Shown piece after piece: positions 6,146 through 26,300 of a stretch of DNA of 33,259 bases. Every line of letters begins with the position of its first letter. Positions within the stretch are counted from its first letter, which is position 1. The translations under genes were made by a program, and so were the position numbers. The notes beneath the pieces were generated by a model. The model saw nothing but the letters and a program-made list of their open reading frames with translations. It made no database searches and had not been told where the DNA came from. Origin of the DNA: a virus. Its lineage: Duplodnaviria > Caudoviricetes. The stretch is taken from the IMG/VR virus record IMGVR_UViG_3300025296_000068, positions 1 through 33,259 of that record. One strand, given 5' to 3'.

Positions 6146-8362
6146 TTAAGTCCCCCGTCTTTCGTTGATGTCGATGCGGTTAGCGATGTCGCGGGCCAGG
6201 TCGTTCGCGGCTACCTCGTCCTGGATGTGGGCCTCGTTGAAAATGAACGTATACGAGTTGCCGGCGCCCATACCTTTGCCTTTGCCGAGGGGTATGACGG
6301 CCTCGGGGCCAGCTTCGCCGATCATGGCAAGGGTGGGCTTGGTGACGATTCCTCCAGCATGGAAGCCGGGAACGGTAGCGGCGCCAAGCCCGGAGGAGGC
6401 GAACGGGCTTACGCCAGTGAATATCTTGATGATCTTCTTGAGCCAGTCGGGGATGATTCCTTCAATGAAGCTAATCGCGATCTCGACCCCGTCATCTATC
6501 CACTCCGTAACCATTGTGATGACTTTCCATACGGCGTTCGCCTTGTTAGTGCCGAACTTAAATGCTACCCAAACACCATCTGTAAGCCACTCCGTAACCT
6601 TGGTGATAATCTTCCATACGGCGTTCGCCTTGTTAGTGCCGAACTTAAATGCTACCAGAACACCATCTGTAAGCCACTCCGTAACCTTGGTGATAATCTT
6701 CCATACGGCGTCCGCCTTGTTAGTGCCGAACTTAAATGCTACCAGAACACCATCTGTAAGCCACTCCGTAACCTTGGTGATAATCTTCCATACGGCGTCC
6801 GCCTTGTTAGTGCCGAACTTAAATGCTACCAGAACACCATCTGTAAGCCACTCCGTAACCTTGGTGATAATCTTCCATACGGCGTCCGCCTTGTTAGTGC
6901 CGAACTTAAATGCTACCAGAACACCATCTGTAAGCCACTCCGTAACCTTGGTGATAATCTTCCATACGGCGTTCGCCTTGTCAGTGCCGAACTTAAATGC
7001 GATTTCAATACCCTCTGAAATCCAATCCGCCACCTTGGTGATAGTCTCCCAGACGGCGTTCGCTACATTCGTGGTGAACTTGAATGCAGCCTGTACCCCA
7101 TTGGCGATCCAATCCGCCACCTTGGTGATAGTCTCCCAGACGGCGTTCGCTACATTCGTGGTGAACTTGAATGCAGCCTGTACCCCATTGGCGATCCAGT
7201 CCGTAACCTTGGTGATAGTCTCCCAGACGGCGTTCGCTACATTCGTGGTGAACTTGAATGCAGCCTGTACCCCATTGGCGATCCAGTCCGTAACCTTGGT
7301 GATAGTCTCCCACGCGTTACCGGCGAGGTCTTTCGTCAGCTTTAGGGCGGCATTAACAGCCGTTTTGCCACTCTCCCACCACCCTAATACTGTCTCGACG
7401 ATCTTATCGATCACGCCCTTCGTGAAGTTAATTGCGATGCCGATTCCTGTCGCTGCGAGGCCAACCCAGTCCTTAATCGTATCTATCAGGGACCAGAACG
7501 TACCCGTAAGAAAATTGATGGTAATACCGAAGGCCGCAGGGATAAGCTCGGTGAAGAACGCATTGAAATTGGCTTTCAGCTCGTCGCTAATAATGGACTT
7601 AAGGAAGTTGGGGATGGTCTCGGTGAATGCCTTCTTGAGGAACGGTAGGACGGTGTCGCTAATGTAATCCATTAACTTCCCCCAGTCCTCTTGCAACTCC
7701 TTGCTAAACAGCAGGTCCTTGATATTGAAGTTCAGCAAGTCCTCTACGGCCTGCTGTAAGGTCGTCTTTACCTTATCGAGAACCGTCGTTGCGCCCTCAC
7801 CCGCGGCGATAATCCTCTGCATACCAGTCTCGTAGGAGCCCAGCCAGCCGACGAGGTCTTCAAGGGGCCGGATATTGCCCAGCATCGCCTCGCCGATGGC
7901 CTTTGAGGCTTGCTCTACTGATACGCCCGTAGCCTGAACCAGGGCCAGGGCGGCCTCTACGTCGTCGATGCCGGTAGTGGCATCCTTCGATGTGTTGAGA
8001 ATGATTCCAAACGCCTTCTCGGCATCCTTGGCAGTCTTGGCGTACGCATCCCCAATAGTAGCAAATTGAGGCTTTGCCGCCTCGAAGGACTGCTTAGCTA
8101 TAGGCCCCATGCTTGCGACGACGAGGTTGGTATGAGCAGATACCTTCTGGAGTTCGCGGTGCACGTCAATAATGGCCTTTATCGAGAAGACACCCGCGAC
8201 GGCGCCGACCCCGATAGCGGCAAGGGCGCTACTGAATCCCTTGAGGCCAGTCGTTACACCAGCGAAGCCCCGCTTCGTAGTCGTCAGGCTACTATCAAGC
8301 TCCTTGAAGCCCGCCTTGGCCTGTTTCGTATCTGCACTAACCTTTAGCTCTACGTCAGCCAT
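6146..8362 (-). CDS. Tail tape measure protein
   Basis: 738-aa helical protein downstream of the tail chaperones; Trp/Phe-periodic 29-aa repeats; C-terminal 'FHAGGIVTKPTLAMIGEAGPEAVIPL' motif characteristic of TMPs. Confidence 0.93.
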   Translation of the reverse strand: MADVELKVSADTKQAKAGFKELDSSLTTTKRGFAGVTTGLKGFSSALAAIGVGAVAGVFSIKAIIDVHRELQKVSAHTNLVVASMGPIAKQSFEAAKPQFATIGDAYAKTAKDAEKAFGIILNTSKDATTGIDDVEAALALVQATGVSVEQASKAIGEAMLGNIRPLEDLVGWLGSYETGMQRIIAAGEGATTVLDKVKTTLQQAVEDLLNFNIKDLLFSKELQEDWGKLMDYISDTVLPFLKKAFTETIPNFLKSIISDELKANFNAFFTELIPAAFGITINFLTGTFWSLIDTIKDWVGLAATGIGIAINFTKGVIDKIVETVLGWWESGKTAVNAALKLTKDLAGNAWETITKVTDWIANGVQAAFKFTTNVANAVWETITKVTDWIANGVQAAFKFTTNVANAVWETITKVADWIANGVQAAFKFTTNVANAVWETITKVADWISEGIEIAFKFGTDKANAVWKIITKVTEWLTDGVLVAFKFGTNKADAVWKIITKVTEWLTDGVLVAFKFGTNKADAVWKIITKVTEWLTDGVLVAFKFGTNKADAVWKIITKVTEWLTDGVLVAFKFGTNKANAVWKIITKVTEWLTDGVWVAFKFGTNKANAVWKVITMVTEWIDDGVEIAISFIEGIIPDWLKKIIKIFTGVSPFASSGLGAATVPGFHAGGIVTKPTLAMIGEAGPEAVIPLGKGKGMGAGNSYTFIFNEAHIQDEVAANDLARDIANRIDINERRGT
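6500..7320. repeat. 87-bp (29-aa) coding tandem repeat in the tape measure gene, about 10 units of two subtypes
   Basis: Units start at 6500, 6587, 6674, 6761, 6848, 6935 (AFKFGTNKA[D/N]AVWKIITKVTEWLTDGV type) and 7022, 7109, 7196, 7283 (AFKFTTNVANAVWETITKV[A/T]DWIANGVQ type; last partial). Confidence 0.95.
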
Positions 8363-9464: not shown

Positions 9465-9893
9465 CTATCCGCGCTTGCGCGCCTCCTGTAGTCGATACGC
9501 ACTCTCGTTAAACTCCCCCATGAAGTCCGGGAAGTCCATTACCCTCGGCTGCGTGCCCACCTTGTGTAGGAAGATCGGCTCGCGCTCGATCGGTAGCAGG
9601 TGCTCGTTAAAACACTGCTGGCCAGGTGGGAATGCGAAGGTCACGATTCCGACCTCCTCCTTTGTGGTGAAGTGGAGAATGGACCGTCCCTCGCGGGTCC
9701 TCATGGGATTCATCGCGTTACGGATATATAGGTCCTTGTCCGATCCGATCGGCACCACGACCTCGAAGCCCATGATGTGTCGCGGACATGCAACCTCGTC
9801 ACATCGAGCCCGCCGCCAGTAGTCCTTGCCCCACGGCCTCGTGGCGCGGTAGCGATCCAGCTTAGGCGTACGCCGTGTCGTCAACAGACTCAC
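9465..9893 (-). CDS. Hypothetical phage protein with Cys/His motifs (CDEVACPRH ... CFNEH)
   Basis: 142-aa ORF between two tube-like genes, GTG start overlapping the upstream gene. Confidence 0.7.
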   Translation of the reverse strand: MSLLTTRRTPKLDRYRATRPWGKDYWRRARCDEVACPRHIMGFEVVVPIGSDKDLYIRNAMNPMRTREGRSILHFTTKEEVGIVTFAFPPGQQCFNEHLLPIEREPIFLHKVGTQPRVMDFPDFMGEFNESAYRLQEARKRG

Positions 9894-10593
9894 CCCTTCT
9901 GATCCCGACCGCGAAGACGGCGGTGCTAAAGCTTCCCGAGGTGGTCACGCGCAGGTATCGATCCACGGTACCGGCGACGGTCAGCCGCTCCGTTGTTCTG
10001 CCTGTTGCGTTGGTGAACGCCTTCAGCGTCGCCCAGGTCGAATTGTTGGCACTGTCCTCTACCGTGATCGTTACCGTACCCGACGCAAGGCTCATTACCT
10101 GGAGGAATACGGCGGCGCCGGATGCACTCGAGGCGGAATTGTCCACGCTCGTAGTCGAGGCCCCCGACGAATGGCTAACCTTCCCAGCGGTGAGCAGGTC
10201 GCCCCATTCCAGCGGAACGAGGTTAGCTAGGCACTGCACGGTCAGCGAGAGCGCCCCGTCCTGGGTACGGCTGCCGTCGTAATTGATCTGCTTCGAGACG
10301 AGGTGGGCCATCACGTCGCCTCGGGTCGTACTCTGCGCGTAGAAGGCCAGTACGTCGGTAGTGAGCAGCGGACTCAGGGCCGGGTGGGACTGAAGGCTCG
10401 CATCATTAAACCAGCTTTTGAAGTCCATCAGGCCGTCTCCGTGCGTCAGTAGCCGTTCAATCGCCGAACTGGATAGCCCGGTCAAGTCCTGGACGCCGCG
10501 CGGCGAGGAGATCTGATCCAGGGCGCTAACGTCGCCTGAAAGGTCGTATCCACCGATATAAAACTGCCCCCCAAGGCCGCCCTTTTTGGCCAT
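9862..10593 (-). CDS. Tail-tube-like protein with extra C-terminal beta domain
   Basis: N-terminal half resembles 9051..9455 (MAKKGGLG / LSGD / PRGVQDLTG / ERLL); about 110 extra residues, Ser/Thr-rich. Confidence 0.7.
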   Translation of the reverse strand: MAKKGGLGGQFYIGGYDLSGDVSALDQISSPRGVQDLTGLSSSAIERLLTHGDGLMDFKSWFNDASLQSHPALSPLLTTDVLAFYAQSTTRGDVMAHLVSKQINYDGSRTQDGALSLTVQCLANLVPLEWGDLLTAGKVSHSSGASTTSVDNSASSASGAAVFLQVMSLASGTVTITVEDSANNSTWATLKAFTNATGRTTERLTVAGTVDRYLRVTTSGSFSTAVFAVGIRRGESVDDTAYA

Positions 10594-13668: not shown

Positions 13669-13830
13669 CTAGCTCCTACTGCGTCTTGCTCGCCGCTTGG
13701 GCGGCTCTGGCCCCCTTGGCTCCCTAAGCGGCTTGGCCTCGACGACCGATGGGGTCATGGGCGCGTAGCAAACGTCGCACCTACGCGCCTGGCGCTCGGT
13801 CTCCCACCCGCACGCTTCGCACTGGTTCAT
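13669..13830 (-). CDS. 53-aa double-CxxC zinc-ribbon protein with basic tail
   Basis: MNQCEACG...RCDVCYAPM...KRRARRSRS; ATG 13830 with GAGG RBS after the upstream stop. Confidence 0.7.
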   Translation of the reverse strand: MNQCEACGWETERQARRCDVCYAPMTPSVVEAKPLREPRGPEPPKRRARRSRS

Positions 13831-13841
13831 ATACACAACCT

Positions 13842-14804
13842 CTAGCTGGAGGTTGCGGGGATGATCCCGCCCTGGCCACCGGCCGCACCGTCGTTGCCGA
13901 AGGTGCCGCCCGCGTGGATGAAGAACTTGTCCCCGATGGTCCCTACCAGCGTGGCCTCGGTAACCGCAGCTTCGGCTGGGGTATTGAAGCCCCCGGCTAC
14001 CATCCCGCCCTCGCAGCCATCCACCAACTGGAACGGCTCGGCTCCCGAGAGCAACTGAACGCCGCGGCAGTTGACCACCCATACGTTCTTACCGGCGGTT
14101 GTTCGGTTGTGGATAATCGCCGTCTCGAAATTCCCGTAGAACTCGCAGTCCTCCACCAGGATGTTCTCGGAGTCGATGAAGAACAGGAACCCGGTGTCCA
14201 CAGCCCCATCGCTCCCCGCAGGGTCGGTAGGCTGGAGGGCTGTGCAGCGCCGGATCGTGAGGTCGTCGAACGTGGTCGCCAGGTTGATGAACCCGAGGGC
14301 TTCTTTGGCCGACGAAGTCACGAAGTCGCAGTCCTCGATCAACACATTCCCGACGTTGATGTCGAGGAAGTTGACCAGGTCGTTTATGTCGCAGACCATG
14401 CGGAAGTTGCTTATCACCGTGTTGGCCGCGCTGATAAGGATGTCGGCCGTGGTATCGGTCCCGAAGGTCAGTGTCGGCTTGGCGGTACCGAAGCCCAGCC
14501 CTCGGATGCTGATGCCCGCAACGTCGCAGGTCCAGCGGGCGGAGTTCGTCAGCGTCTCCGTGTAGCCGGGCATGACGAAGATAGTGTCGCCCTGGTTAGC
14601 CGTACACTGGCCAATCGCGAAGTCCACCGTGGCAAAGGGATCGTCGGGTGTAAGGCCGTGGCCCGCCGTATCCGTCCCGCCGGTCATTACGAAGAAGACG
14701 TTGCCGGTGAAGACGTGGGTATCCACCAGAGTCGCCGTCAGCGCCCCGCGCTGCTTGGTGTAGAACAGGCCGCTACGCTGGCCTACGAGGGTGGGAAGTG
14801 CCAT
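13842..14804 (-). CDS. Right-handed beta-helix (pectin-lyase-like) virion protein, probable head fibre
   Basis: 'GLTPDDPFATVDFAIGQCTANQGDTIFVMPG' cap motif followed by 'VLIEDCDF', 'LTIRRC', 'ILVEDCEF' beta-helix rungs; AAGGAG RBS. Confidence 0.8.
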   Translation of the reverse strand: MALPTLVGQRSGLFYTKQRGALTATLVDTHVFTGNVFFVMTGGTDTAGHGLTPDDPFATVDFAIGQCTANQGDTIFVMPGYTETLTNSARWTCDVAGISIRGLGFGTAKPTLTFGTDTTADILISAANTVISNFRMVCDINDLVNFLDINVGNVLIEDCDFVTSSAKEALGFINLATTFDDLTIRRCTALQPTDPAGSDGAVDTGFLFFIDSENILVEDCEFYGNFETAIIHNRTTAGKNVWVVNCRGVQLLSGAEPFQLVDGCEGGMVAGGFNTPAEAAVTEATLVGTIGDKFFIHAGGTFGNDGAAGGQGGIIPATSS

Positions 14805-14899
14805 CTACGTATCTCCTTTGCTTTTCGGGGTTGGTTACCCTTGTTGCTACTTGCTCACAGGTGGACGCTTTACGCGCTTGTCCCGAGGTGGCCCCTTTA

Positions 14900-15178
14900 T
14901 CACTCTGCTACCGCTACCGGCTCTCTCTCGGCGACTCCCCTCATCCGGTTGCCGAACGTAGTCACCGCGGCGTCGTCGCCCTTCTCGGCGGCGAGGTCCG
15001 AAAACGCCCTTGCATCGCCCTCGTCCTTCAAGGGGCATCCGCAGCGGGTGCAGTTGTCCGGCAGCCCGATAGGCTTGTTCTTCTCGTCCCGTATCTGGTG
15101 GGCCATCGAACAGTGAGGGCAGTCCGCCACGGTCACCGTGTCCCCGCTGATGTTGGGCATATTCTCTTTAAGTTCCAT
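14900..15178 (-). CDS. 92-aa zinc-ribbon protein (CPHC ... CTRCG)
   Basis: Start reassigned to ATG 15178 (RBS GGAGGGG); two CxxC pairs. Confidence 0.7.
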   Translation of the reverse strand: MELKENMPNISGDTVTVADCPHCSMAHQIRDEKNKPIGLPDNCTRCGCPLKDEGDARAFSDLAAEKGDDAAVTTFGNRMRGVAEREPVAVAE

Positions 15179-15615
15179 TGCTTTCCCCTCCCTAGAATGG
15201 TTAGGACGCTGTCGCAGAGCTTGCAGTACAGGGATTGCGGAGTCCCGTCGTGGTGGGGGCTCCACCTAGCCTCGCACCGCCCACAGTGCAATACGCCCTC
15301 CTCGTCGAAACTGGCCGGGGTGAGGCGCCCACTAAGGGGCAGGTCCCCCCGGTATCGTGCCTTCCGTAGCTCCATCCACCACCCGATTTCCTCGGGCCAC
15401 TCGCCGGTAGCCTCCCGCCATACGAGGGCCTTCGCCTTGACCCGGCAAAGCTCCTCGGGTGTCAGGAACTCGAAGCTGGGGTGCCAGAACGGGACCTCCA
15501 GGATGTCCTCGCGGAGGGCAAGCTCGTGGAACTTGTCCCACCACTCCTGCGGGATCATGCCCGGAGGCACCTCCCGCTTGTTCGCCCGGATTTGCGGCTC
15601 TAGCACCCAGCCCAT
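15133..15615 (-). CDS. Hypothetical protein with C-terminal zinc ribbon (CGRC ... CKLC)
   Basis: 160-aa Trp-rich ORF filling the gap in the operon. Confidence 0.7.
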   Translation of the reverse strand: MGWVLEPQIRANKREVPPGMIPQEWWDKFHELALREDILEVPFWHPSFEFLTPEELCRVKAKALVWREATGEWPEEIGWWMELRKARYRGDLPLSGRLTPASFDEEGVLHCGRCEARWSPHHDGTPQSLYCKLCDSVLTILGRGKQWNLKRICPTSAGTR

Positions 15616-16154: not shown

Positions 16155-17561
16155 CTAGGCTCGGGTTGCTACCGACAGGAACGGGGTCAGGGTATTAGAA
16201 CCGTTCCGAGGCGTCAGAGCCGAGTCGATCCACGGGCGCCCATCCACACGCTGGATGAAGCGGAAGTCGGTCTCGTCTGTGCTGAAGCGGACGTGCTCGC
16301 TGGAAGCCATCTCCAACTGCATCCGGTCACCGATCAGGTAGTAAGACGGGTCGACCAGGTACACGTCACCCGCAGTCCCCAGAGTCTCGGCCTTCTCGGT
16401 GTAGACCACCGGTCGCCCCAGAAGCATCGGGGTAGGCGCGCCAGTGATCCCGCCAGCCGGGAAGTACATCGGGGCGCCGCCAGTGCCAACCGACAGGCTC
16501 ATCGTGTAAAGCTGCGGTTGTACGTCCGGGTTCACGAGCCAGATGCTCCGCATAATCGAAGAAGGAAGCATCCGGGCGAACATCTTGATGATGTTCTCCA
16601 CGACGAGCGTAGTTGCCGCCTGGCCCGTCTCTTTGCCCACGGACACCAGCGCGTCAGCATTCTTGATGCCGAGGGGCTGCCCGCCGCCGATCCCGGCGAT
16701 AAAGGCGTCGTCCTCAAAGTACGCCAGCGCCTCCGCGAACAGCGTGTTAAGCAGGGGCTCCAGGGTGATCGCGCTATCCCGCAGAAGTTCGTTGCTGATC
16801 CGGGTCCCGCCGACCAGCTTCTTAGCCGTCAGGACCGCCTGGGCAAACGTCGGCTCGCTCTGGGTAATGGTACCCGACTCAGGTATCCAGTAGGCCGTCA
16901 CGCCGCCGTAGACGTTGCTGGCGTGGGTGGTGTCCCGGATGGTAGGGATACGAGTCGTCAGAGTAGCCATTGGGAGTACCCTGGCGCGGGGCCGTATGGC
17001 CGCCGCCTCAAGGGACATCCGCAGTAGCTCGGCGCGGAACTCCTCGGGTACGAGGAACCCGCCCTGGTCGCCCTGGCTCTCGCCGAGTACCTTCACCCTG
17101 GCGTCTAGCCCCTGCCTCGTAATGTGAGGGGAAATCGCCCTTGCGAAGTCGATGAAGTCCTCGAACTCGCCCGCGTCCATGCCCGCCCCAGTACCGTTAG
17201 CGGCGATCTGGCGGGCCTCTTTGCGTGTCAGCTCAAGGTGCTTATAGATGGCCATACGGTCGGATCGCGTAAGGCCCTGCTTGCCCGCGGCGCTCGGGTC
17301 CATAGGCACCCGCTTGACGGCCTCGGGCATGATGGTCTCGTTCGCGTCGTAGAACTCTTTGAGGCCATTCGCCACGCCCTCGGCGATCTGCTTATCGATA
17401 TCGGGGTCGTGTTTGCGGTGGAGGGCGGCGTATTCCTCCATAAAGGATCGAAACTTCGCCTGGTCCTCCGGGTCCGTGCTCATAGCCCACTTAGCGACAT
17501 GACCGCCGCTTAGCGCCTCCTCAAGCTCCTCAGAGGTCCGAGGTATTGCCTTAGTGACCAT
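16155..17561 (-). CDS. Major capsid protein, HK97 fold
   Basis: 'GGFLVPEEF', 'ISNELLRDS', 'G.GGGQPLGI', 'LLGRPVVYTE', 'FRFIQRVDG' motifs; N-terminal delta-like domain; GGAGG RBS. Confidence 0.96.
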   Translation of the reverse strand: MVTKAIPRTSEELEEALSGGHVAKWAMSTDPEDQAKFRSFMEEYAALHRKHDPDIDKQIAEGVANGLKEFYDANETIMPEAVKRVPMDPSAAGKQGLTRSDRMAIYKHLELTRKEARQIAANGTGAGMDAGEFEDFIDFARAISPHITRQGLDARVKVLGESQGDQGGFLVPEEFRAELLRMSLEAAAIRPRARVLPMATLTTRIPTIRDTTHASNVYGGVTAYWIPESGTITQSEPTFAQAVLTAKKLVGGTRISNELLRDSAITLEPLLNTLFAEALAYFEDDAFIAGIGGGQPLGIKNADALVSVGKETGQAATTLVVENIIKMFARMLPSSIMRSIWLVNPDVQPQLYTMSLSVGTGGAPMYFPAGGITGAPTPMLLGRPVVYTEKAETLGTAGDVYLVDPSYYLIGDRMQLEMASSEHVRFSTDETDFRFIQRVDGRPWIDSALTPRNGSNTLTPFLSVATRA

Positions 17562-17573
17562 TTGATATTCCTC

Positions 17574-18515
17574 CTAATGGACGCCGTTAAGGGCTTCGCG
17601 TATTACGTCGGCTGCATCCGGCGCCATCGGGTGCCCTTCCACCCCTAAGCGCCGGTCGAGGGCTTCGTCAAGGCGTTGCATAACTGCAATGTGGAACACA
17701 TCGGCGAACGCCCGCAGCATGTCCTCGGTGACGCCGATGTCGATTTCAGGGACCTCCCGGAAGGCCGTCAGTTCGGCCTGTAGGCGCTCCAAGCCGCGTT
17801 GAAGCTGTGCCTCGGTGAGCGCCAGGTCGCCAGACGAGGTAGCGCCTTCAAGTAGAGCATCGTGCTCCAGGGTCTCCACGTACTCGCGGAGGCCGGGGTG
17901 GACACCGGCGAAGCCCTTGGCTAACTGTAGCGCCTCAGGGTTCGACGGGATGGTCACCTGGGAGATTTCGAGGAGTTCCTGGCCCTTGAACTCGTAGTTG
18001 GGCCACCAGTCGGAGGAGTCCTCCAGCTTGACGGCCTTCTCCATGTCGGGAACGAACCCGACGGAGTAGGCGGCCTTCCCACGCTTTGCAAGCTCCCAGC
18101 CCCAATCAGCCTCCTGGTTCCCAGCGTCCTTGTAGTAGGTAGCGACGCCCTTCAGTTCCTTGGCCTGCCTGTCGACGGACACCGAAAGCTCCCCGATCTG
18201 GTTCGTGAGGCCCCGATAGTTGTGCGAGGAGAGGAGGACATTATGGGTGCGGAAGGTCTTGAGGTCCCAGAAGCTCTGACGGATGATGTCGCCGTCGCGG
18301 TCCTTCGCCTCGGTGGAGAAGACCGCGGAGACGGTGCCCTTGTCCTCGTCGAGGACCTTCGTGGTGGCGGTGACGAACTTGACGCGCCGGTGCTGGGGAT
18401 CAGGGATAGGCAGAAGGAACCTGCTCAGGTCCATAGTCCCCTGGGCAGGCCCGGTATCGTCTATATCGACTCGAGGATCGACGCCAGGGATGCCTTCGCC
18501 GCCGCTCTTAGCCAT
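17574..18515 (-). CDS. HK97-family prohead (capsid maturation) protease
   Basis: 'STEAKDRDGDII', 'VLLSSH', 'AYSVGF', 'ELLEISQVTIPSNPEAL' motifs. Confidence 0.92.
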   Translation of the reverse strand: MAKSGGEGIPGVDPRVDIDDTGPAQGTMDLSRFLLPIPDPQHRRVKFVTATTKVLDEDKGTVSAVFSTEAKDRDGDIIRQSFWDLKTFRTHNVLLSSHNYRGLTNQIGELSVSVDRQAKELKGVATYYKDAGNQEADWGWELAKRGKAAYSVGFVPDMEKAVKLEDSSDWWPNYEFKGQELLEISQVTIPSNPEALQLAKGFAGVHPGLREYVETLEHDALLEGATSSGDLALTEAQLQRGLERLQAELTAFREVPEIDIGVTEDMLRAFADVFHIAVMQRLDEALDRRLGVEGHPMAPDAADVIREALNGVH

Positions 18516-18532
18516 GTCGCCTCCTGTTGGGC

Positions 18533-18584
18533 AACAAAAAAGCGCCCAACCTGTACGTTCCGGTCAACGTACGAGTCGGGCGCT
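18533..18584 (-). terminator. Intrinsic terminator/attenuator hairpin just upstream of the protease RBS
   Basis: mRNA AGCGCCCGAC-UC-GUACGUU-(GACCGG)-AACGUAC-AG-GUUGGGCGCU followed by UUUUUGUU. Confidence 0.75.
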
Positions 18585-18701
18585 CAAGCGCCGGGAGGGA
18601 GGGTGATATGCCCCTGCCTACCTAGCGGGCCACACGGTCGGGAGCATCGGGCGTCTAGCGCACTGGCCCCCGAAAGGGTTCTATATATTGGTTACGCTAA
18701 T

Positions 18702-18732
18702 AGGATAACCACAACACTTAGGGGGTTGTCAA
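18702..18732 (-). promoter_or_regulatory. Candidate sigma70-type promoter for the capsid operon
   Basis: TTGACA (18727-18732), 19-nt spacer, TATCCT (18702-18707), beginning 2 nt after the portal stop. The spacer is longer than optimal. Confidence 0.5.
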
Positions 18733-18734
18733 GC

Positions 18735-21038
18735 CTACTCTATGACGTATCTCTCCGCTTTGCACCGGCGGCACCAGTGCTTCGAGCCCTTCGGTACATC
18801 CTTGGCCAGCAGAGCGTTGCAGTCGGAGCATCGGAACTCGGGTACGACTCGCGCGATAGGCTTGCCGCAGCCTAGACAATGGGTGAGGCCATTCCGGGCC
18901 GCAATCCGGTTTAGGTAGCCACACGGGCATTCCATAATCTGGATGGTTCCGCGCGACTCCTCGACCGCCTGCGCTGCCTCGTCTCCGATCCCCTCCAGCG
19001 GGTCGATGTCCGAGACCGGCGCCGTCCGATAGGTGTTCGCGCAGCGACAGTTGGGATGCTGCGGGATGGTGGAGCGCCCGGAGGGGAATGGGTCTCCTAC
19101 CTTTATCCACCCCGCAGCCTCGTTGGCCCGGCACTCCACTGAGACTAGTTCATCTCCCTGCGTCACCCACTGCTTCTCGTCCTGGTCCTGGATGATCGCC
19201 GCCTGCATGGCCCCCTCCCCGAGTGCCGTGGCCGTCTCCGTGCGGGCCACCAAGCTAGCCCGGTCCTTGCTGAAGGCGAAGTCGGATTGGAGCGCACCCT
19301 GTAGCTCCCCGAGACTCCGGCCTTCCTCGATCGTCTGCGCTACCAGTTCCCCTACCCGCCGTCGCGTATATGCAACGAGGTTGGCATCGCCTGTCACCGT
19401 GAGCAGTTCGGCGCCCCGGTGCTGGGCGTACCGTGAAGCGAGCACCTGGGCCTGCGCCGCCTCGACCTCGGGATAGGCTTCGGCAATGGATAGCTCGAAC
19501 AGGTCCTCCAGTTCGGCCACGGTGTCGTCGCTGTACTTGCTCCACCAATCCCAGTCGTATCCGTTGACATCCGACTCCTCGATCTTCGCCACCGGTGGCA
19601 AATCCTTGGTGAAGTCGCCAATCGTCTGTATGCCCTTGAACTGTTCCAGATATGCAACAAGGGCACTCGACTCGGTAGCCAGGCGATCGGACCACGACTG
19701 AGCTATCAGACGCCGCTGGCTCGCGACGGACTTCGTATCGAAGGCGTCCAGGATAAGGCCATTGAACTCGGCGACCGGGAAGGACCTGCGGGGCGGCTTG
19801 GCGCTCAGGGCAAAGGGTAGCCCTCCACCGGTGGGCTTGAACTCGTCGCCGTCGTCCACCTCGCCGTAGCCGAGGAGGCCACGGGACTCGTTCAGGGTCA
19901 GGATACCTGTCGCATAGCCGTCCCGCGCCTCCAGGAGGTCCCGATCCCGGTCCTGGGGTGTCGGGTCCCGGAAGTCGAAGGTCAGGTCAGACGGTCCGTA
20001 TGTGGGCAATAGGCGCCTATTCAGCGCCCGCCGGAAGCGCCGCAGCCTGGGGCGCACTATCCACCTGCTGAAGGCCACCTCGGCCGCCTCGGCGTTGGCC
20101 CGGTTGACCGACTCGCTGATCCCCAGCATGGCCAGGGGCATCCCGAAGGCGCCGAGGATAATGTCACGCTCCAGGCGCCGTAGCTGCTCCATTTGCATAT
20201 CGCGCTGGGTGTACTTCCGGTCGACCCATTTGCCCTTCTCCAGGATGGCGATGCGATGGGCATTGGCGACGCCCTTGTGCTGCTCCCTCCACCGCGTGAT
20301 GTAGCGTTCCCACGCTGTATCGTCCATTGTCTGGTCAAGCTCGATCACGCCGCCGGGCTCGGCGTTGTTCACGAAGAAGTTTCGTGTCCACTGCCCGGCG
20401 TACTTCTCCGATTCGAGGTCGTATATGAGGGCCTGCACCGGCCCGAGGCCCCGGTAGGGGTTCAGCGGGTGCGGCATCCGAATGAAGATTACGTCGTCGA
20501 CGTCCAGTGGGATGCGCTCGGACCCGATCACATAGAGGTAGCCCTGGATGAACTCGTCGGGGTGAGGGATCGGCCGGATGCGGTCGGGGCGCATAGGCCA
20601 TAGCTCGACGGGCCTGCCCCTGGAATCCCGCAGGATCAGCCACCAGCACTCCCCGGTAAGGTCGAGATGCTGCTGGCACGTCTCCAGGAACTCCTCGCGT
20701 CCGTAAAAGGGGTTAGGCTGCTCCCAGAGGTCGAGGACGGGGTGGGACTCGACCTCCCGGCGGTCGTCGCCGGTCCCACGGTACAGGGTCCACTCGTTGG
20801 CGCCGACCCCTTGGCTAATCCGGCTGACCGTGGAGAACAGCCATCCGACATCGGCGTACCGCTCCATGTTGGCGGTGGGGCTCTGACCAGGCTGGCCACC
20901 ACCGAACAGGCCGCCCATGAAGCCACCGACGAGCCCCAGGTTAGGGGCCATCGGTATCCGGTCCGGTGTCGCTGCCCTGATACGGCTCTTGAGGTAGCGC
21001 CCCATAAGCCCTACCAGGCTATCTGATCGTTCTAGCAC
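18735..21038 (-). CDS. Portal protein (HK97 family) fused to a MuF/SPP1 gp7-like minor head domain and C-terminal zinc ribbons (Mu Com-like)
   Basis: Portal motifs 'QPNPFY', 'LWPMRPDRI', 'YRGLGPV', 'FFVNNAEPGGVI', 'TLNESR'; MuF motifs 'RASLVARTET', 'KQW', 'C..NE', 'PQHPNCRC'; tail 'CPCG..CLGCG..EFRCSDCNALLAK..WCRRCK'. One open frame of 767 aa. Confidence 0.92.
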   Translation of the reverse strand: MLERSDSLVGLMGRYLKSRIRAATPDRIPMAPNLGLVGGFMGGLFGGGQPGQSPTANMERYADVGWLFSTVSRISQGVGANEWTLYRGTGDDRREVESHPVLDLWEQPNPFYGREEFLETCQQHLDLTGECWWLILRDSRGRPVELWPMRPDRIRPIPHPDEFIQGYLYVIGSERIPLDVDDVIFIRMPHPLNPYRGLGPVQALIYDLESEKYAGQWTRNFFVNNAEPGGVIELDQTMDDTAWERYITRWREQHKGVANAHRIAILEKGKWVDRKYTQRDMQMEQLRRLERDIILGAFGMPLAMLGISESVNRANAEAAEVAFSRWIVRPRLRRFRRALNRRLLPTYGPSDLTFDFRDPTPQDRDRDLLEARDGYATGILTLNESRGLLGYGEVDDGDEFKPTGGGLPFALSAKPPRRSFPVAEFNGLILDAFDTKSVASQRRLIAQSWSDRLATESSALVAYLEQFKGIQTIGDFTKDLPPVAKIEESDVNGYDWDWWSKYSDDTVAELEDLFELSIAEAYPEVEAAQAQVLASRYAQHRGAELLTVTGDANLVAYTRRRVGELVAQTIEEGRSLGELQGALQSDFAFSKDRASLVARTETATALGEGAMQAAIIQDQDEKQWVTQGDELVSVECRANEAAGWIKVGDPFPSGRSTIPQHPNCRCANTYRTAPVSDIDPLEGIGDEAAQAVEESRGTIQIMECPCGYLNRIAARNGLTHCLGCGKPIARVVPEFRCSDCNALLAKDVPKGSKHWCRRCKAERYVIE

Positions 21039-21040
21039 GA

Positions 21041-21091
21041 CGGTCGCCTCCCCCTTGCGAATCCCCTCTCAGGTTGTTGCGGAGGCGACCG
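21041..21091 (-). promoter_or_regulatory. RBS-sequestering hairpin in front of the portal gene
   Basis: Perfect 11-bp inverted repeat CGGTCGCCTCC (21041-21051) / GGAGGCGACCG (21081-21091); the 3' arm on the mRNA contains the portal's GGAGG. Confidence 0.65.
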
Positions 21092-21102
21092 GGCCGCCGC
21101 AG

Positions 21103-21222
21103 TTACGCGTAGATGTCCACCGCGCCGTTATCCCGCGGGAGCCCGATGGCGGCGTGGTGGTGTCCCTCATGTCCTGAGCCTCGGCGCCTTGTCCCATTAC
21201 GAATAGAGCACCAGTACATCAT
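21103..21222 (-). CDS. 39-aa peptide with GHEGHH motif
   Basis: ATGA-coupled to the peptidase stop: MMYWCSIRNGTRRRGSGHEGHHHAAIGLPRDNGAVDIYA. Confidence 0.4.
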   Translation of the reverse strand: MMYWCSIRNGTRRRGSGHEGHHHAAIGLPRDNGAVDIYA

Positions 21223-21527
21223 CGCACCCACCCGACCCGGCGCGGCGGCCAGTAGCGGAACGAGACGCGACCAAGGACCTTGTCGATTGGGACATCCGGG
21301 TAGTCGACCACGTCCCGGTTGTCACTGCGGAGGTCGGCGACAACACCCCGTCCCCGGCCGACGGTGAACGTGGTTATCCTCTTCACGACAAGGTCGAGGT
21401 CCACGATAGGCCGAGCGATCACGACGCAAAAGCTGAGCCGGTACCGCACCACGACGCAGCGATCACCGGGCTGGAGCGTCGGCGTCATGGACGTCCCGAC
21501 CATCTTGACCAGCCACGGCCGCCTCAT
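21219..21527 (-). CDS. S24/S26-family Ser-Lys peptidase (signal-peptidase/SodX-like)
   Basis: 'VGTSMTPTLQPGD', 'VVKRI', 'SDN', 'VLGRVSFRYWP' signatures; ATG 21527 in an ATGA overlap; no TM anchor. Confidence 0.85.
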   Translation of the reverse strand: MRRPWLVKMVGTSMTPTLQPGDRCVVVRYRLSFCVVIARPIVDLDLVVKRITTFTVGRGRGVVADLRSDNRDVVDYPDVPIDKVLGRVSFRYWPPRRVGWVR

Positions 21528-21680
21528 GCGTTCAGCCCCGCCGCCATCGCCGCGCCCTGTGCCGACTCGCCCACGACCAGCCCCGGCGTCTGGTGGGGGC
21601 CTTCGTGCTTCGGTGCCCGGCTCCCTCATAATCTCCTTCAGGACCTGGTATGCCCAATGCCACGATCGACAACGCTTCAT
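21524..21680 (-). pseudogene. Small gene apparently frameshifted by an inserted terL fragment
   Basis: Starts MKRCRSWHWAYQ at ATG 21680. After the 33-nt terL copy, another frame reads PKHEGPHQTPGLVVGESAQGAAMAAGLNA* and ends in ATGA overlap with the peptidase. Confidence 0.45.
21611..21643. repeat. Exact 33-bp direct repeat of terL internal sequence 22758..22790
   Basis: CGGTGCCCGGCTCCCTCATAATCTCCTTCAGGA at both places (encodes LKEIMREPGT on the minus strand). Confidence 0.95.
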
Positions 21681-21682
21681 GG

Positions 21683-21922
21683 CTAGACTTCCCCAACGTC
21701 GAGCAGAGTGCCCGACCGCTCGTAGATTTGGCCTAAATGGAAGACCGCCTTCAAGCAACTCTCGATAGGGTGCTCGGCTAGGAGCACCGCGAACATCGCC
21801 GCAAACTCCTCCTGCATTTCCGGGGAAGGCACCAGTGAGCCCTCCTCGATCACGCCAAGGGTATGCTCAAACGCCTTCAGACGGGCGGCGTGGCTTTCGT
21901 CATTCATATAGACGAGTACCAC
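21683..21922 (-). CDS. Hypothetical protein
   Basis: 79-aa ORF, helical; the true start may be the internal MNDESH. Confidence 0.6.
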   Translation of the reverse strand: MVLVYMNDESHAARLKAFEHTLGVIEEGSLVPSPEMQEEFAAMFAVLLAEHPIESCLKAVFHLGQIYERSGTLLDVGEV

Positions 21923-21947
21923 ACGTCAAGCACTTGGCTCCCCTCGC

Positions 21948-22023
21948 GGAGAGTTGCCCGAGTGGCCGAAGGGACTCGTTTTAGAAGCGAGTGGGGTGGC
22001 TTTGATCGGTGCCCCCACCTCCG
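21948..22023 (+). ncRNA. tRNA-like element/pseudo-tRNA: Ser-type 5' half, TAG anticodon, no canonical T arm
   Basis: GGAGAGT-TG-CCCGAGTGGCCGAAGGG-A-CTCGT-TTTAGAA-GCGAG matches a class II tRNA acceptor/D/anticodon arm. The 3' side has one hairpin and ACCTCC-G but no GGTTCRA. Confidence 0.6.
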
Positions 22024-22050
22024 CTTGCCCGTCGACAAGCCCTAGCGTAA

Positions 22051-23316
22051 TCAAACGAACCTCACGCTTGGCTCCCCCTCCAGCATAAGCTCGGACAGGC
22101 CCCACACGACAGCATCGAGGCGGTCCGGCGACGCTTCCCCCGGCTTGTTCTCCCAGGTGCACATCTGATCTTCGAGGTCCGGGAACTCCCCGACGTGGTG
22201 GACCTTGCCCTGTTGGTACAGTGCCGCTACCGGCTCCGCACGGGTACGTTTCCCTCGACTCGCGTGGACTAGCTGAACCGGCACCACCATACCACGATTT
22301 CGAGCGGCGACGCCGATGGTAATCTCCACCAGTTCGCCGCCGTTGTTCGCTTCTGCAACGATGGTGTCGGCCTTTAGCTCCAGGTAGAGGTCGATGGCCC
22401 GGTTAGCCCAGTCCAGCGGCGACATCCTGCCCGAGGCGTCCCGGAAGACGTAACCGTGGCTGTTCTCTCCGATCCCAGCCGCTACGATTCCCGCCTCATC
22501 GCTCTCCTCGGAAGTCGTAACGTTCGGGTCTATGGCTACCACAAGTCGTCGGATATTGTACTGCTCAGGTGTACCAAGCGCCACGCGCCGATCGTCGATC
22601 CAGGCCCGCTGCCATAGCGCCCCCTCTAACTGCTCTATCAGCTCGGCGTATATCTCCTGACGCCCTAGGTTGGTGCCCTCGTACTTGCGGATGATGGCGG
22701 CGAAGAAGGACGGGGGCAGGTTCGCCATGTTGTCGTAGGTGGCGCCCCTGGTGGTCACGGTGCCCGGCTCCCTCATAATCTCCTTCAGGAGCTTGATGGG
22801 CTTCGGTGTCGTGGTGATGGTGACCCTCGGTGCCTGCCCGAGGCGAAGGCCGAATTGCAGGTTGTTCCACGTCTCCCGCGGGTATTTCCACGATCCCAAC
22901 TCGTCGCACCATGCCTCGTCGAACTGGGGGCCTCGTAGCTGGTCGGGCTCATAGGAGCTAAAGCAAAGCGCGAAGGCACCGTTGGGCCACGATAGCTTCC
23001 GGTTGGCCTTGTTGTAGGTTGGCCGTTGATGCGGTGGTGAAACAGCGATCAGGCCGGACTCCCCCTCGATCATCGTGTCCCGGATGTCCGCCGGTGTCCG
23101 AGCCACCAGCGCCCACCTGCCCGAGCGACCAGAGTCTACGCCGTCACGGACTGTCTCGGCGCCCGTCCTCGTCTTCCCCCAACCCCTCCCCGCTAGGATC
23201 AGCCACGTCAGCCATGCCCCCGGCGGCGGCATCTGCTCCGTTCGCGCCCAGAACGTCCACTCGTATAGGAGGGCTCTCGCTTCCTCCTCCGGCAGAGAGA
23301 GCACGAGTGCCGTCAA
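22051..23316 (-). CDS. terL: Terminase large subunit
   Basis: Walker A 'AGRGWGKT', 'LRGPQF..AWCDE' Walker B, 'TTTP' coupling motif, nuclease 'VAIDP', 'EANNGG', 'SPDRLDA'. Start uncertain: TTG 23316 has AAGGA upstream; the frame is open to GTG 23418. Confidence 0.95.
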   Translation of the reverse strand: MTALVLSLPEEEARALLYEWTFWARTEQMPPPGAWLTWLILAGRGWGKTRTGAETVRDGVDSGRSGRWALVARTPADIRDTMIEGESGLIAVSPPHQRPTYNKANRKLSWPNGAFALCFSSYEPDQLRGPQFDEAWCDELGSWKYPRETWNNLQFGLRLGQAPRVTITTTPKPIKLLKEIMREPGTVTTRGATYDNMANLPPSFFAAIIRKYEGTNLGRQEIYAELIEQLEGALWQRAWIDDRRVALGTPEQYNIRRLVVAIDPNVTTSEESDEAGIVAAGIGENSHGYVFRDASGRMSPLDWANRAIDLYLELKADTIVAEANNGGELVEITIGVAARNRGMVVPVQLVHASRGKRTRAEPVAALYQQGKVHHVGEFPDLEDQMCTWENKPGEASPDRLDAVVWGLSELMLEGEPSVRFV

Positions 23317-23722
23317 GGAGTCCTTCTGCTTCAGCCTGCTCAAGTCTTCCAAAGTGGAGACCGAGCTTATCGAGGAGGGCTTTCCTGGGGTCGTCGTAGA
23401 CGTTGAGGTCGATTTCACCTGATACCTCGTGCCGCTGTGCGTTCTTCCACCGCTCCGGGCTCCGGTTGTATAGCCAAACCTGCTGCGCCGTTACGTTGCC
23501 GCCGATCGCCGAGAGGTACATCGCCCCCTCGACGCGCTCGTTCGCCGTAGTCTCCGCATAGGATACGTCCTCGGCGAAGGCCGGATACTTGTGCATGTGC
23601 TTCTCGACGGTCCGGGCGTTGACGCCTACCTGAGCCGCGCACGCCATCCGACGCCCACCGGCGGTAAGGAGCCGGATGTACTCCTTCTTCTTTACTGCGT
23701 CGAACTTTTCGATCCTACCCAT
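23144..23722 (-). CDS. terS: Putative terminase small subunit (HTH)
   Basis: HTH 'RMACAAQVGVNARTV' and 'VEGAMYLSAIGGNVTAQQVWLYNR.PERW' motif; directly upstream of and overlapping terL; ATG 23722. Confidence 0.75.
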   Translation of the reverse strand: MGRIEKFDAVKKKEYIRLLTAGGRRMACAAQVGVNARTVEKHMHKYPAFAEDVSYAETTANERVEGAMYLSAIGGNVTAQQVWLYNRSPERWKNAQRHEVSGEIDLNVYDDPRKALLDKLGLHFGRLEQAEAEGLLDGTRALSAGGGSESPPIRVDVLGANGADAAAGGMADVADPSGEGLGEDEDGRRDSP

Positions 23723-24935
23723 CGACCAGCACCGCCTTCTGGCCAGTGTAGTCTTCCCAGCGTCGGATTGTGACGTCGCAGTAGCGAGGCTCAATGTCCA
23801 AAGCATAGCACCGCCGCCCTAGGCGCTCCGCTGCGATGATGGTTGTCCCAGATCCGACGAAGGGCTCGTAGACATCGCCCTCGTGGTTGCGTATCGGGCG
23901 CTCCATGCATTCGAGCGGCTTCTGGGTGCTGTGCCCTCCCTCGACGTTAGCGTCTAGCGGGATAGCCCATAGCGTCGTCTGGGATCGATCGCCAGCCCAT
24001 GCGGCGGTCTTGCCCTTTCGGACGGCATACCAGCACGACTCATGCTGCCAATGGTAATGACCTCGCCCGATTGCGAATCGTGTCTTGGCCCATACGATTT
24101 GGGATCGCGTCTCGAACCCCTTGGCCTTTAGGCTTTCCTGAACCTCTTGCGCCGTCGCGTCATGCCACACGTAAGCAACGGCGCCTGGGAATAGCGCCCA
24201 TGCCTCGCTCCAATCGGCCCGGTCGTCGTTCGTGACGGTGCCGACTCTTGGGCCTGTCCTGGCAGTTAACCCAGCGTCGGCGCGCCAAATCGCGTCATAG
24301 CTAACCCCATAGGGCGGGTCGGTCACCATGAGATTAGGCGTCACCCCACCCAGCAACGCCCCCACGTCCTCCTCGTCGGTCGAGTCCCCGCACATCAGCC
24401 GGTGCTCGCCGAGCTGCCACACCTGGCCCCGTTGCACCGTTGCAGCGTAGTCGTCCGCCTCGGCTGCATCTATAGCGGCGCCAGTGTCGTGGGTTTCCTC
24501 TTTCGGGTCCTCGGGCAACGTGAGCGTTGCTAGCCCACCATCTGCGACGGACGCAACGAGTTGCGACAGGACATCGCTGTCGAATGCGGCTGCATCGGCA
24601 AGGGTCTTGATGGCATCGGTGTCCGCCTCCGCCATCGCCGCCAAGGGGTCCAGCGTCAGCAGGAGCTTGCGGGCCTCGTCGTCGTCGAGGTCGAGTACGA
24701 GCACCGGGACTTCCGTATCCGGGGTGGTCTCGGCTCGTAGGTGCCCGTCGAGTATCTGTAGGCCGTCCGGCGTCTCCCGCGCGAGGATCGCATCAGCGTA
24801 CCCTATCTCCCCGAGGACCGCTTCAATCGCCCGACGCTGAGCCGGTGGGTGCTGGCGCCAGTTCTCCGGGTGTGGCAGAAGCTCGGACGCCTTGACGGAG
24901 CGTAGCTCCTTTACTCTGTTGCGTATCTGCATCAT
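23715..24935 (-). CDS. ParB-N domain plus beta-class amino DNA methyltransferase
   Basis: 'LLPHPENWRQH...ILDGHLR' ParB/Srx domain; 'GEHRLMCGDST', 'TDPPY', 'HSTQKP', 'EPFVGSGTT'. Confidence 0.92.
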   Translation of the reverse strand: MMQIRNRVKELRSVKASELLPHPENWRQHPPAQRRAIEAVLGEIGYADAILARETPDGLQILDGHLRAETTPDTEVPVLVLDLDDDEARKLLLTLDPLAAMAEADTDAIKTLADAAAFDSDVLSQLVASVADGGLATLTLPEDPKEETHDTGAAIDAAEADDYAATVQRGQVWQLGEHRLMCGDSTDEEDVGALLGGVTPNLMVTDPPYGVSYDAIWRADAGLTARTGPRVGTVTNDDRADWSEAWALFPGAVAYVWHDATAQEVQESLKAKGFETRSQIVWAKTRFAIGRGHYHWQHESCWYAVRKGKTAAWAGDRSQTTLWAIPLDANVEGGHSTQKPLECMERPIRNHEGDVYEPFVGSGTTIIAAERLGRRCYALDIEPRYCDVTIRRWEDYTGQKAVLVDG

Positions 24936-25168
24936 TCCCCCGCGTGTCGCCGCATTACGCCCTCGTCGAACCGAGCAGGCGATACTCGTATCCTCGACCT
25001 TCTATGGGCGCTCATAATCCGAAGTACCAGGACCCTATCGCAGCGAGTACACCGGCCGTGGAGCGGCGTGTTCGGGTATGCAACGATGTATAGGGGGCGC
25101 TCGTTAGCTCCAGGGCAGTTAGCCACAACAGAATGGGCCTCCCGGGCTGAGATAATGGCGGCGTTCAA
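24932..25168 (-). CDS. Small Cys-containing hypothetical protein
   Basis: TTG start; CP...CTRC; ends in ATGA overlap with the MTase. Confidence 0.5.
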   Translation of the reverse strand: MNAAIISAREAHSVVANCPGANERPLYIVAYPNTPLHGRCTRCDRVLVLRIMSAHRRSRIRVSPARFDEGVMRRHAGE

Positions 25169-25180
25169 GACGATCGTGGG

Positions 25181-25378
25181 TCACTCCCTTTTGTTCCTCA
25201 TTGCCCGCCTCCGGCCCTCTGCGGCACGACGCCGGTGCTGTGCTGAAACGTTGAATTGCCCCTCCGGGACAGTGTTGTCCATGTCCCGCTTCGTGTTGCA
25301 TTTACGGCACACGCCTATCGTTAACGCCTCACCTCGAGGTGGCGGGATGAGGAAATGGTGGACGCAGTCACTCGGCAT
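25181..25378 (-). CDS. 65-aa zinc-finger-like protein (CVHH ... GVCRKC)
   Basis: Overlaps the upstream stop; CxHH/CxxC motif and basic tail. Confidence 0.7.
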   Translation of the reverse strand: MPSDCVHHFLIPPPRGEALTIGVCRKCNTKRDMDNTVPEGQFNVSAQHRRRAAEGRRRAMRNKRE

Positions 25379-26300
25379 CTTCTAGCTCGTCATGGCCACA
25401 TAGCGGACACGGCCCCTCGATAGGCTCCTCGAACTCGGCGTCGCAGTGCTGGCACGTCAAATCGTCGTCGTCATGCCATTCTTCCAGAGTAATAATTGTC
25501 TTGTTGGTCCGGTTGTCCGCCCCCGACGTATTCGAGTTCCACTTCACGAACTTCGGCTCCCCGAAGACGCAGTGGTCCGGGCTATCGTCTACTAGGACAC
25601 CCGCGTCTACAAGCCCGTCGAGGAAGGGCTTCATCCCAATAATCAGATTGTCCAGATCAACCTTCTGTTGATTTCGGAACGTATAGGTTACCTTAACCAC
25701 GTCGGGCTTGTGTCGGATAAACTCGGCGCCCTCGATATAGCCCCACCAGTTACCGCTCTCGCGAACCTTCTTCGCCCACCGAGCCTTCTCGTACCTATTC
25801 GCCCGGCTATTCCCCCTTAGCTGCTCAGGAGGCAGGTAGCCTAGCTCAATCGTCGCCGTGAGGGTCCTCTTATCGTCCCGCCCTATACAGTGCGCTTGGC
25901 AACGATGCTTGCGGGTCGGCGAGGTAGCGACAACGTCCATTATTTGCTCCAGGGTCTTTTTGAATCGCTTCTTGAAGGCCGCCCGGACAGCGATCACAAC
26001 CAGCGCCTCGTTCTTGTAGGGCCAGGCCCAAATCTCCTGCGCATAGGCACGGTTCCTGCGGTCGTCGACGAAGAACTCGACGACAATGTGGTACTGGTCG
26101 TCTCGGTAGTGCCACCAGCCACGGCGGAACGTCGACTGATGCGCTCCGCCCTTCTCGTCCTCGCCGCTAAACCAGATACGCCGCGGGTTGAGCGGGCTAT
26201 CGTACGGCTCGTGCCCGCAATAGGCGCAGGTGTAATACTCCCCGTCGTCGTGGAAGAAGTCCCCTCCGCACTTCGGGCATACCCTAGCCATCGTCGTCAT
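25368..26300 (-). CDS. RusA-like Holliday junction resolvase with N- and C-terminal zinc ribbons
   Basis: 'DLDNLIIGMKPFLDGLVDAGVLVDDS' RusA catalytic motif; CPKC/CAYC at the N-terminus and CQHC/CPLC at the C-terminus. Confidence 0.75.
   Translation of the reverse strand: MTTMARVCPKCGGDFFHDDGEYYTCAYCGHEPYDSPLNPRRIWFSGEDEKGGAHQSTFRRGWWHYRDDQYHIVVEFFVDDRRNRAYAQEIWAWPYKNEALVVIAVRAAFKKRFKKTLEQIMDVVATSPTRKHRCQAHCIGRDDKRTLTATIELGYLPPEQLRGNSRANRYEKARWAKKVRESGNWWGYIEGAEFIRHKPDVVKVTYTFRNQQKVDLDNLIIGMKPFLDGLVDAGVLVDDSPDHCVFGEPKFVKWNSNTSGADNRTNKTIITLEEWHDDDDLTCQHCDAEFEEPIEGPCPLCGHDELEDAE

Follow-up and report, generated by a model that had tools for sequence, protein, structure and literature searches.

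The window analysed here, the whole of a 33,259-nucleotide (nt) stretch from a tailed virus (Duplodnaviria; Caudoviricetes; IMG/VR record IMGVR_UViG_3300025296_000068), carries on its minus strand a gene whose product joins an HK97-type portal and a MuF domain to a terminal zinc ribbon reminiscent of Com of bacteriophage Mu, and this gene is followed by the leader of the prohead protease and capsid genes. Sequence, folding and covariation together indicate that the leader comprises a promoter-like site and then a small hairpin that is mutually exclusive with an intrinsic terminator, placed before the genes that would be controlled. The setting is a normal head module (terminase, three short frames, the fusion, prohead protease and capsid protein), in which the following parts were delineated, model confidence being given as the predicted local distance difference test (pLDDT).

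18735..21038, minus strand: portal-MuF-ribbon fusion gene, 767 amino acids (aa), GTG start
19869..20837, minus strand: HK97-type portal domain, residues 68-390 (Pfam PF04860, E 3e-64; Foldseek)
19728..19841, minus strand: flexible linker 1, residues 400-437 (pLDDT <50), with candidate [RK]-small-hydrophobic protease sites
19356..19727, minus strand: helical N-terminal part of the MuF unit, residues 438-561, inside which the gene split of relatives falls
19023..19355, minus strand: MuF core, residues 562-672 (Pfam PF04233, E 3e-12, match 562-667)
18939..19022, minus strand: acidic linker 2, residues 673-700, ending in a candidate protease site
18861..18929, minus strand: inner Cys4 ribbon, residues 704-726, private to the window phage and of low model confidence
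18747..18848, minus strand: terminal Com-type zinc ribbon, residues 731-764, the putative RNA-binding part
17574..18515, minus strand: prohead protease, first gene behind the terminator (PHROG 80, E 1e-11; Pfam S78 weak)
16155..17561, minus strand: major capsid protein, second gene of the putatively gated operon (Pfam PF05065, E 2e-50)

The fusion is a single open frame in which the portal domain scores 218 bits against a PF04860 cut-off of 39, with portals of gene transfer agents and HK97 as its top Foldseek matches and with its gene placed between terminase and prohead protease, and the MuF domain directly behind it, including the motif PQHPNCRC, scores 47.6 bits against 29.6. Judged by the N-termini of relatives, an in-frame ATG at 21005 (codon 12) is a better fit as start than the GTG. 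An AlphaFold model shows the portal, a low-confidence linker, a helical MuF unit, a second linker, a poorly modelled inner ribbon (pLDDT 45-65) and a confident, all-beta terminal ribbon (pLDDT 86). Thus, every part that the original prediction had read into the one frame, from the portal through MuF and the acidic linker to two Cys4 ribbons, is present. The possibility it had raised against itself, a sequencing error that removed a stop codon, is ruled out: the frame recurs in other IMG/VR records (with locus numbers of ours, L001 at 100% over residues 1-767, L019 at 99% over 603-767 and L020 at 100% over 629-767), its protein cluster holds 8 sequences on 11 contigs, and the ribbon-bearing tail is kept in homologues. 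This tail, a linker with zinc ribbons, matched no enzyme family when examined for a toxin domain. Among annotated phages there were four weak matches, all to MuF only, and no cultured relative with the ribbon. Some relatives lie in long Dehalococcoidia contigs (L181, L182), suggesting hosts in the Chloroflexota; one short contig is filed under Phycisphaeraceae. Three longer homologues (P0043, P0050, P0064) have a PF14890 domain, which we take to be of the intein type, inserted at the cysteine motif of MuF.

The terminal ribbon ends 64 of the 66 closest homologues and none of the 14 more distant ones (80 homologues in all); the profile used for this count was built from related loci, and the motif is also visible directly in the sequences. 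Two ribbons were flagged only in the window's protein within this set, so that the pair is ruled out as a conserved unit and the last ribbon alone is common to the relatives. Across 39 ribbons, three of the cysteines are invariant and the fourth is present in at least 90%, and they are retained in proteins that are only about 40-50% identical. On its own, the window's ribbon falls below the Pfam threshold for Com (PF10122; 9.9 bits against a cut-off of 22.9) and matches the PHROG gpCom at E 0.03. At the level of the family, however, Com is the most frequent Pfam match among the 39 ribbons (13 at E up to 0.1, best 5.5e-5), and their PHROG matches are led by 6417, 'translational regulator' (21), and gpCom (16). 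Moreover, a related complete phage of 42 kilobases (kb), L284, has a portal-MuF protein devoid of the ribbon and, 3 kb further on, a free gene of 53 aa whose product exceeds the Pfam Com cut-off (23.4 versus 22.9 bits) and aligns with the fused ribbons (95%, E 4e-8). Given these family-level matches and the free gene, and with its individual score below the cut-off, we regard the terminal ribbon, on its sequence, as a distant Com-type domain rather than a formal member of the family; the predicted Com-like module thus stands for the family and not for the window's ribbon taken alone. Fold searches with the ribbon gave generic ribbons only, none at E <0.001, and its ESM Atlas matches were unnamed clusters below 0.9. 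A homologue search with the 48-aa tail alone produced no candidate, and a locus search with the free ribbon protein found none. The rest of the window record (87% complete) has no second full match to the ribbon profile, and the only full matches in three host assemblies carrying the leader are to the prophage's own ribbon. Several more small Cys-rich genes of the window (13669-15615 and 24932-26300, minus strand) are matched by the profile in no case.

The leader between the fusion and the protease gene comprises the following elements.

18727..18732, minus strand: -35-like hexamer TTGACA, 3 nt after the fusion's stop codon
18702..18707, minus strand: -10-like hexamer TATCCT, with a 19-nt spacer against 17-18 in most relatives
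18651..18661, minus strand: upstream small hairpin with a CUAGA loop, a match to the Com-type C(N)2GA loop
18579..18592, minus strand: competing hairpin GGCGC-UUGA-GCGCC, whose 3' arm is the terminator base; putative antiterminator and binding site
18536..18584, minus strand: intrinsic-terminator-like hairpin (18541-18584) with an ACCGG loop, and U run
18520..18525, minus strand: AGGAGG ribosome site for the protease, not included in the terminator stem

We assembled 40 non-redundant loci with a protease match, 33 ribbon-bearing and 7 ribbonless; the 33 leaders analysed below are those of 32 ribbon loci and of the ribbonless L107, as L104 was dropped as a near copy of L103, and the boundary of L113 was set by hand. 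Each of the 33 ribbon-bearing loci has a strong hairpin with a T run ahead of its protease (30 by rule; L025, L114 and L130 on inspection). Among the 7 ribbonless loci only L107 has such a terminator, and with two further ribbonless MuF loci that have a Clp-type protease and no leader (L135, L184), the leader is absent in 8 of 9. The co-occurrence of ribbon and leader that had been anticipated is therefore borne out, as is the attenuator foreseen downstream of the fusion: at -30.4 kcal/mol (z -4.4), the window's terminator is the strongest on the whole minus strand. A TTGAC is found within 230 nt in 33/33 leaders as against a background of 23%, and is spaced 16-19 nt from a TAnnnT in 23 of them. 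A short inverted repeat surrounds the -10-like hexamer of the window in operator-like fashion (18687-18711, minus strand). An RNA model of the leader found 21 of 24 held-out protease-anchored leaders, many of them near the training set, and 0 of 57 ribbonless portal loci; it finds one copy in the window. Rfam yielded no family match in 17000-23500, only a chance hit at E 0.93.

In 20 of the 33 loci, up to 2.3 kb of extra DNA separates the ribbon's stop codon from the promoter, because of which the leader appears to belong to, and travel with, the protease, and the ribbon would act on it as a protein. This interval is an insertion hot spot in L003, L025, L111, L124, L128 and L130 (nuclease-like proteins, membrane proteins and others, up to 2.3 kb). 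Between promoter and terminator, three loci have tRNA-Met genes (L022:6196-6271, L112:2715-2788, L259:4310-4385), with tRNA-Ile (TAT) genes farther upstream in L022 and L259. At the other end of the leader, five loci of a clade in which portal and MuF are split (L004, L008, L012, L014, L017) share a conserved frame of about 85 codons before the protease or fused to its 5' end, interrupted by a stop in L004 and L008.

In all 33 leaders, the bases with which the terminator begins can also serve as the 3' arm of a small hairpin of 3-6 base pairs (bp). The mean stability of this hairpin, at -3.6 kcal/mol, compares with -2.3 +/- 0.3 when the 5' parts are swapped between leaders (0 of 1000), and its 5' arm changes along with the terminator base in L032, L103, L106, L118, L180 and the window. 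With RNAalifold, two-sided changes are seen in 5 of the 7 pairs that make up the terminator base; nothing beyond this base is shown, because the MAFFT leader alignment mis-registers the small hairpin. The loops, too, often match the one selected for Mu Com by SELEX. In Mu-family phages, Com selects CC(N)2-3GAG in a hairpin loop, accompanied by GAG(N)2CC repeats (PMC6483171). Hairpins with C(N)2-3GA loops are present in 21 of 30 leaders versus 3.8 in shuffles, such hairpins overlap the terminator in 13 of 30 versus 0.9, and loops ending in GA number 49 against 14. The window's competing hairpin carries GAG(N)2CC, and its second, upstream hairpin has the C(N)2GA loop. In a folding model of the window, the competing hairpin has a probability of 0.3-0.95 until the 3' arm of the terminator is made, whereupon the terminator wins completely.

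The three bases 5' of the small hairpin may additionally contact the apical loop of the terminator. At the variable position the pairing is Watson-Crick in 20 of 22 leaders versus 13.6 in swaps, with two-sided changes in four loci; the covarying contact is seen in L023, L025, L032, L109, L164 and others. The anchoring rule for this count was fixed after seeing the data, two earlier anchorings having failed, the second without signal (536 of 10000); four leaders, the window's included, could not be anchored, and the signal is weaker on the unedited alignment (6 of 500). In the window the contact takes a degenerate form, 18592-18594 with 18560-18562 (minus strand), the terminator's loop being ACCG. 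This suggests a pseudoknot, which we treat as a lead.

The relatives present the ribbon in several contexts. Of the 33 loci, 21 encode triple fusions, 10 a portal separate from a MuF-ribbon protein, 1 a ribbon joined straight to the portal and 1 a separate Cys gene; in a quick portal tree a single clade (11 rows, support 100) collects most split forms, and three others fall outside it. In L284, the free Com-family gene, a promoter-like site, a small hairpin and a terminator lie directly before the protease (9529-9895), which would make this the unfused version of the putative switch. At the opposite extreme, L126 lacks ribbon, promoter and terminator alike, and its protease start overlaps the MuF stop. 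Since split forms and the free gene of L284 exist, the portal is, judging from these arrangements, not required as the carrier of the ribbon, contrary to the role assigned to it in the original prediction. As to the check proposed there, whether relatives encode the ribbon fused or free and always beside the leader, both forms occur with a leader, and some loci have DNA in between. In L181, a tandem repeat of about 350 bp (6300-6760), possibly an assembly artefact, duplicates the ribbon-coding end of a portal that lost its MuF; its second ribbon copy belongs to this repeat and is ruled out as a free gene.

An intrinsic terminator requires its stem to be closed beside the U run. With this in mind, we think it probable, on the strength of these sequence patterns, that the ribbon is an antiterminator of the capsid-tail operon and works by binding the nascent leader. 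We infer that transcription would start at the promoter-like site just behind the ribbon's own gene and would by default be stopped by the terminator before the protease. The terminal ribbon, as a product of the packaging operon, would then bind the small hairpin, which prevails in the nascent leader for as long as the 3' arm has not been made; a hairpin so held would leave the bottom pairs of the terminator open, the stem would fail to close, and the polymerase would run on through the genes for protease, capsid and tail. In such a cascade, the capsid operon would be licensed by the final product of the DNA-packaging operon. Whereas a ribosome site is unmasked in Mu, control here seems to fall on transcription termination, given that the terminator stem does not include the ribosome site of the protease. 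The earlier notion that the portal licenses capsid expression is thereby retained in part: ribbon and conserved leader co-occur, but the portal is dispensable and the unmasking of a ribosome site is not supported.

Several observations weigh against antitermination by the ribbon. The loci are related, so that the co-occurrence rests on few independent events, and the ribbonless controls are mostly distant, many of them perhaps not reaching the protease gene. L107 has a leader with only a divergent, separate Cys gene behind MuF, L263 has one with no portal module within 4.5 kb, and the RNA model misses the leader of L284. The window's 19-nt promoter spacer is long enough for a consensus promoter scan to miss the site under its spacer limits, and a consensus terminator scan, through its loop limits, likewise missed the terminator. 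The rule for the competing hairpin is permissive, being satisfied by 20.5 of 33 leaders after shuffling; there is no C(N)2-3GA loop near the terminator in 9 of 30 leaders, CC(N)2-3GAG is absent from 7 of 30, and the strict Com-loop rule does not count the window's own competing hairpin, whose loop has 4 nt. Relative to the open form, the terminator is favoured by 2-12 kcal/mol (9 in the window). To these come the sub-threshold Com score of the window's ribbon, the propensity of Cys4 ribbons of 40 aa to match many families, and the window's other small Cys-rich genes, which remain candidate factors.

The best surviving alternative, unlikely in our view, is that the ribbon is structural or packaged cargo (a zinc knuckle binding DNA in the head, or a MuF tail that enters the next host), and that opening of the leader falls to a different factor of phage or host, for instance an antiterminator that targets the polymerase. 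MuF proteins do reside in the head with the portal, and their tails have been proposed to be delivered on infection (PMC5576092); the generic fold of the ribbon and the additional small Cys-rich proteins encoded in the window are in keeping with this reading. Left unexplained, however, would be why loops of Com type overlap the terminator, why L284 has its free Com gene ahead of a similarly arranged leader, and why ribbon, promoter and terminator are jointly missing from L126, where the flanking reading frames overlap.

Somewhat less likely again is an attenuator independent of any protein, in which folding kinetics would pass a fixed share of transcripts and the ribbon would be the relic of a neighbouring Com gene fused by loss of a stop codon. 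Such a fusion would be easy, as L284 has the free gene at the same position, and the folding model lets the small hairpin form unaided in nascent RNA; the same model, however, hands the contest entirely to the terminator once its 3' arm is made, the ribbon cysteines are kept in proteins of about 40-50% identity, and the loop letters fit a protein-binding motif.

The third alternative concerns a hairpin at the start of the fusion gene, for which the original prediction had envisaged a part in the circuit.

21041..21091, minus strand: hairpin burying the ribosome site before the GTG, present in the window, not conserved and probably not part of the system

Although its fold reaches -27 kcal/mol, its z of -1.55 does not exceed chance; the ribosome site is hairpin-buried in 1 of the 33 loci examined (7 more lie too near a contig end), and the portal start abuts the upstream gene in 30 of 33. 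As a conserved part of the system it is therefore ruled out, and it may be a private feature. Beside it, a small hairpin with a GCUAGA loop covers the GTG start (21026-21041, minus strand) and could be a private autoregulatory site. A translational action like that of Mu Com, unmasking the ribosome site of the protease or, via the 21041-21091 hairpin, that of the ribbon's own gene, would accord with the only role demonstrated for Com, activation of translation (PMC6483171), and with the window's start codon buried by these two hairpins, but is quite improbable given that the upstream hairpin is confined to 1/33 loci, that the protease ribosome site in the window lies outside the terminator stem, and that conservation falls on a promoter-like site and a U run.

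Returning to antitermination by the ribbon, encapsidation would probably remove a ribbon that rides on a head-internal protein. In SPP1, one to two copies of the portal-binding MuF protein gp7 are packed (PMC5576092), and the portal is regarded as the nucleator of assembly (PMC10275583), on account of which nearly all ribbon forms would be drawn into the prohead. A basic-small-hydrophobic motif, enriched 3-4 fold in both linkers and not in the folded parts, resembles the delta-domain boundary of the clade's capsid protein and the HK97 K103/S104 site; the enrichment is modest after removal of similar linkers (7 of 30 versus 2.9; 36 of 2000). Sequestration of the ribbon and linker cleavage on assembly are hence plausible, while shut-off of the operon by these means is a tentative suggestion and, because split and free ribbon forms also exist, the least supported step of the proposal. 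In its fullest form, which we likewise put forward as doubtful, the portal vertex would be both sensor and switch: free portal-MuF would antiterminate until 12 copies nucleate a prohead, the fingers are locked in and the protease cuts the basic linker sites. If true, capsid output would track free portal in a self-limiting loop made of one fusion protein and one pseudoknotted leader RNA.

In the terminase/portal interval of the window (21219-21758, minus strand) lies a small S24/S26-type peptidase-like gene (Pfam S26, E 0.009; PHROG repressor C-terminal match, E 8e-5), the true start of which is probably later than the TTG listed.

The closest known system is Com-mom of Mu (PF10122; PMC6483171). 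Shared with it are a small Cys4 ribbon, a gene adjoining its target, and, at least in part of the clade, the form of the target hairpin, which has a C(N)2-3GA loop and GAG(N)2CC repeats and adjoins a larger, inhibitory hairpin. That larger hairpin, however, is a terminator behind a promoter-like site in the present case and a translation-inhibition stem in Mu, the target is a capsid operon rather than a DNA-modification gene, and the ribbon is fused to a head protein and below the family cut-off. Fusions of portal and MuF, and MuF proteins with C-terminal tails, are known (PMC5512222, PMC5576092) and resemble our case in that MuF neighbours the portal or is joined to it and carries an extra domain at its C-terminus, whereas the extensions described are toxins, enzymes or domains of unknown function. 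Terms for Com or the ribbon are absent from six supplementary files searched, and the MuF survey (PMC5576092) counted only tails of at least 100 aa, longer than most of those considered here. Structural or assembly proteins that double as regulators have precedents in P4 Psu, a capsid decoration protein and polarity suppressor acting on Rho (PMC7552001), and in the P22 scaffolding protein, implicated in translational autoregulation (bioRxiv 10.1101/2022.12.13.520362); unlike the present case, neither is described there with a zinc ribbon or a dedicated terminator leader. Com homologues also precede bacteriocin, tailocin and methyltransferase genes, where their role is unexplored or presumed translational (PMC6240691, PMC3299994).

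In mechanism, the nearest likeness is to the RNA-binding antiterminators BglG, SacY and LicT, which control bacterial sugar operons under regulation by phosphorylation. Like them, the protein here would stabilise a small hairpin sharing nucleotides with the base of an intrinsic terminator, but its fold and RNA are unrelated to theirs and it is a phage head protein. Our literature search, with thin coverage of subscription journals, found neither a Com-type antiterminator nor a Com-MuF fusion, and in no paper did we find an earlier description of a Com-type ribbon fused to a head protein before a capsid-gene leader.

The papers found show only the translational role of Com in Mu, its wider role being called unexplored (PMC6240691). 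Against this background, the clade constitutes a compact and testable case, with a ribbon of 40 residues, a leader of 75 nt with covarying alternative folds, and natural versions in which the ribbon is fused, split, free or deleted. If the proposed mechanism is true, these phages would possess a late-gene switch that dispenses with a phage sigma factor or a polymerase-binding antiterminator, one class of MuF tails would have a regulatory rather than a toxic role, and the output of capsid protein, at hundreds of copies per particle, would be matched to the supply of portal, at twelve.

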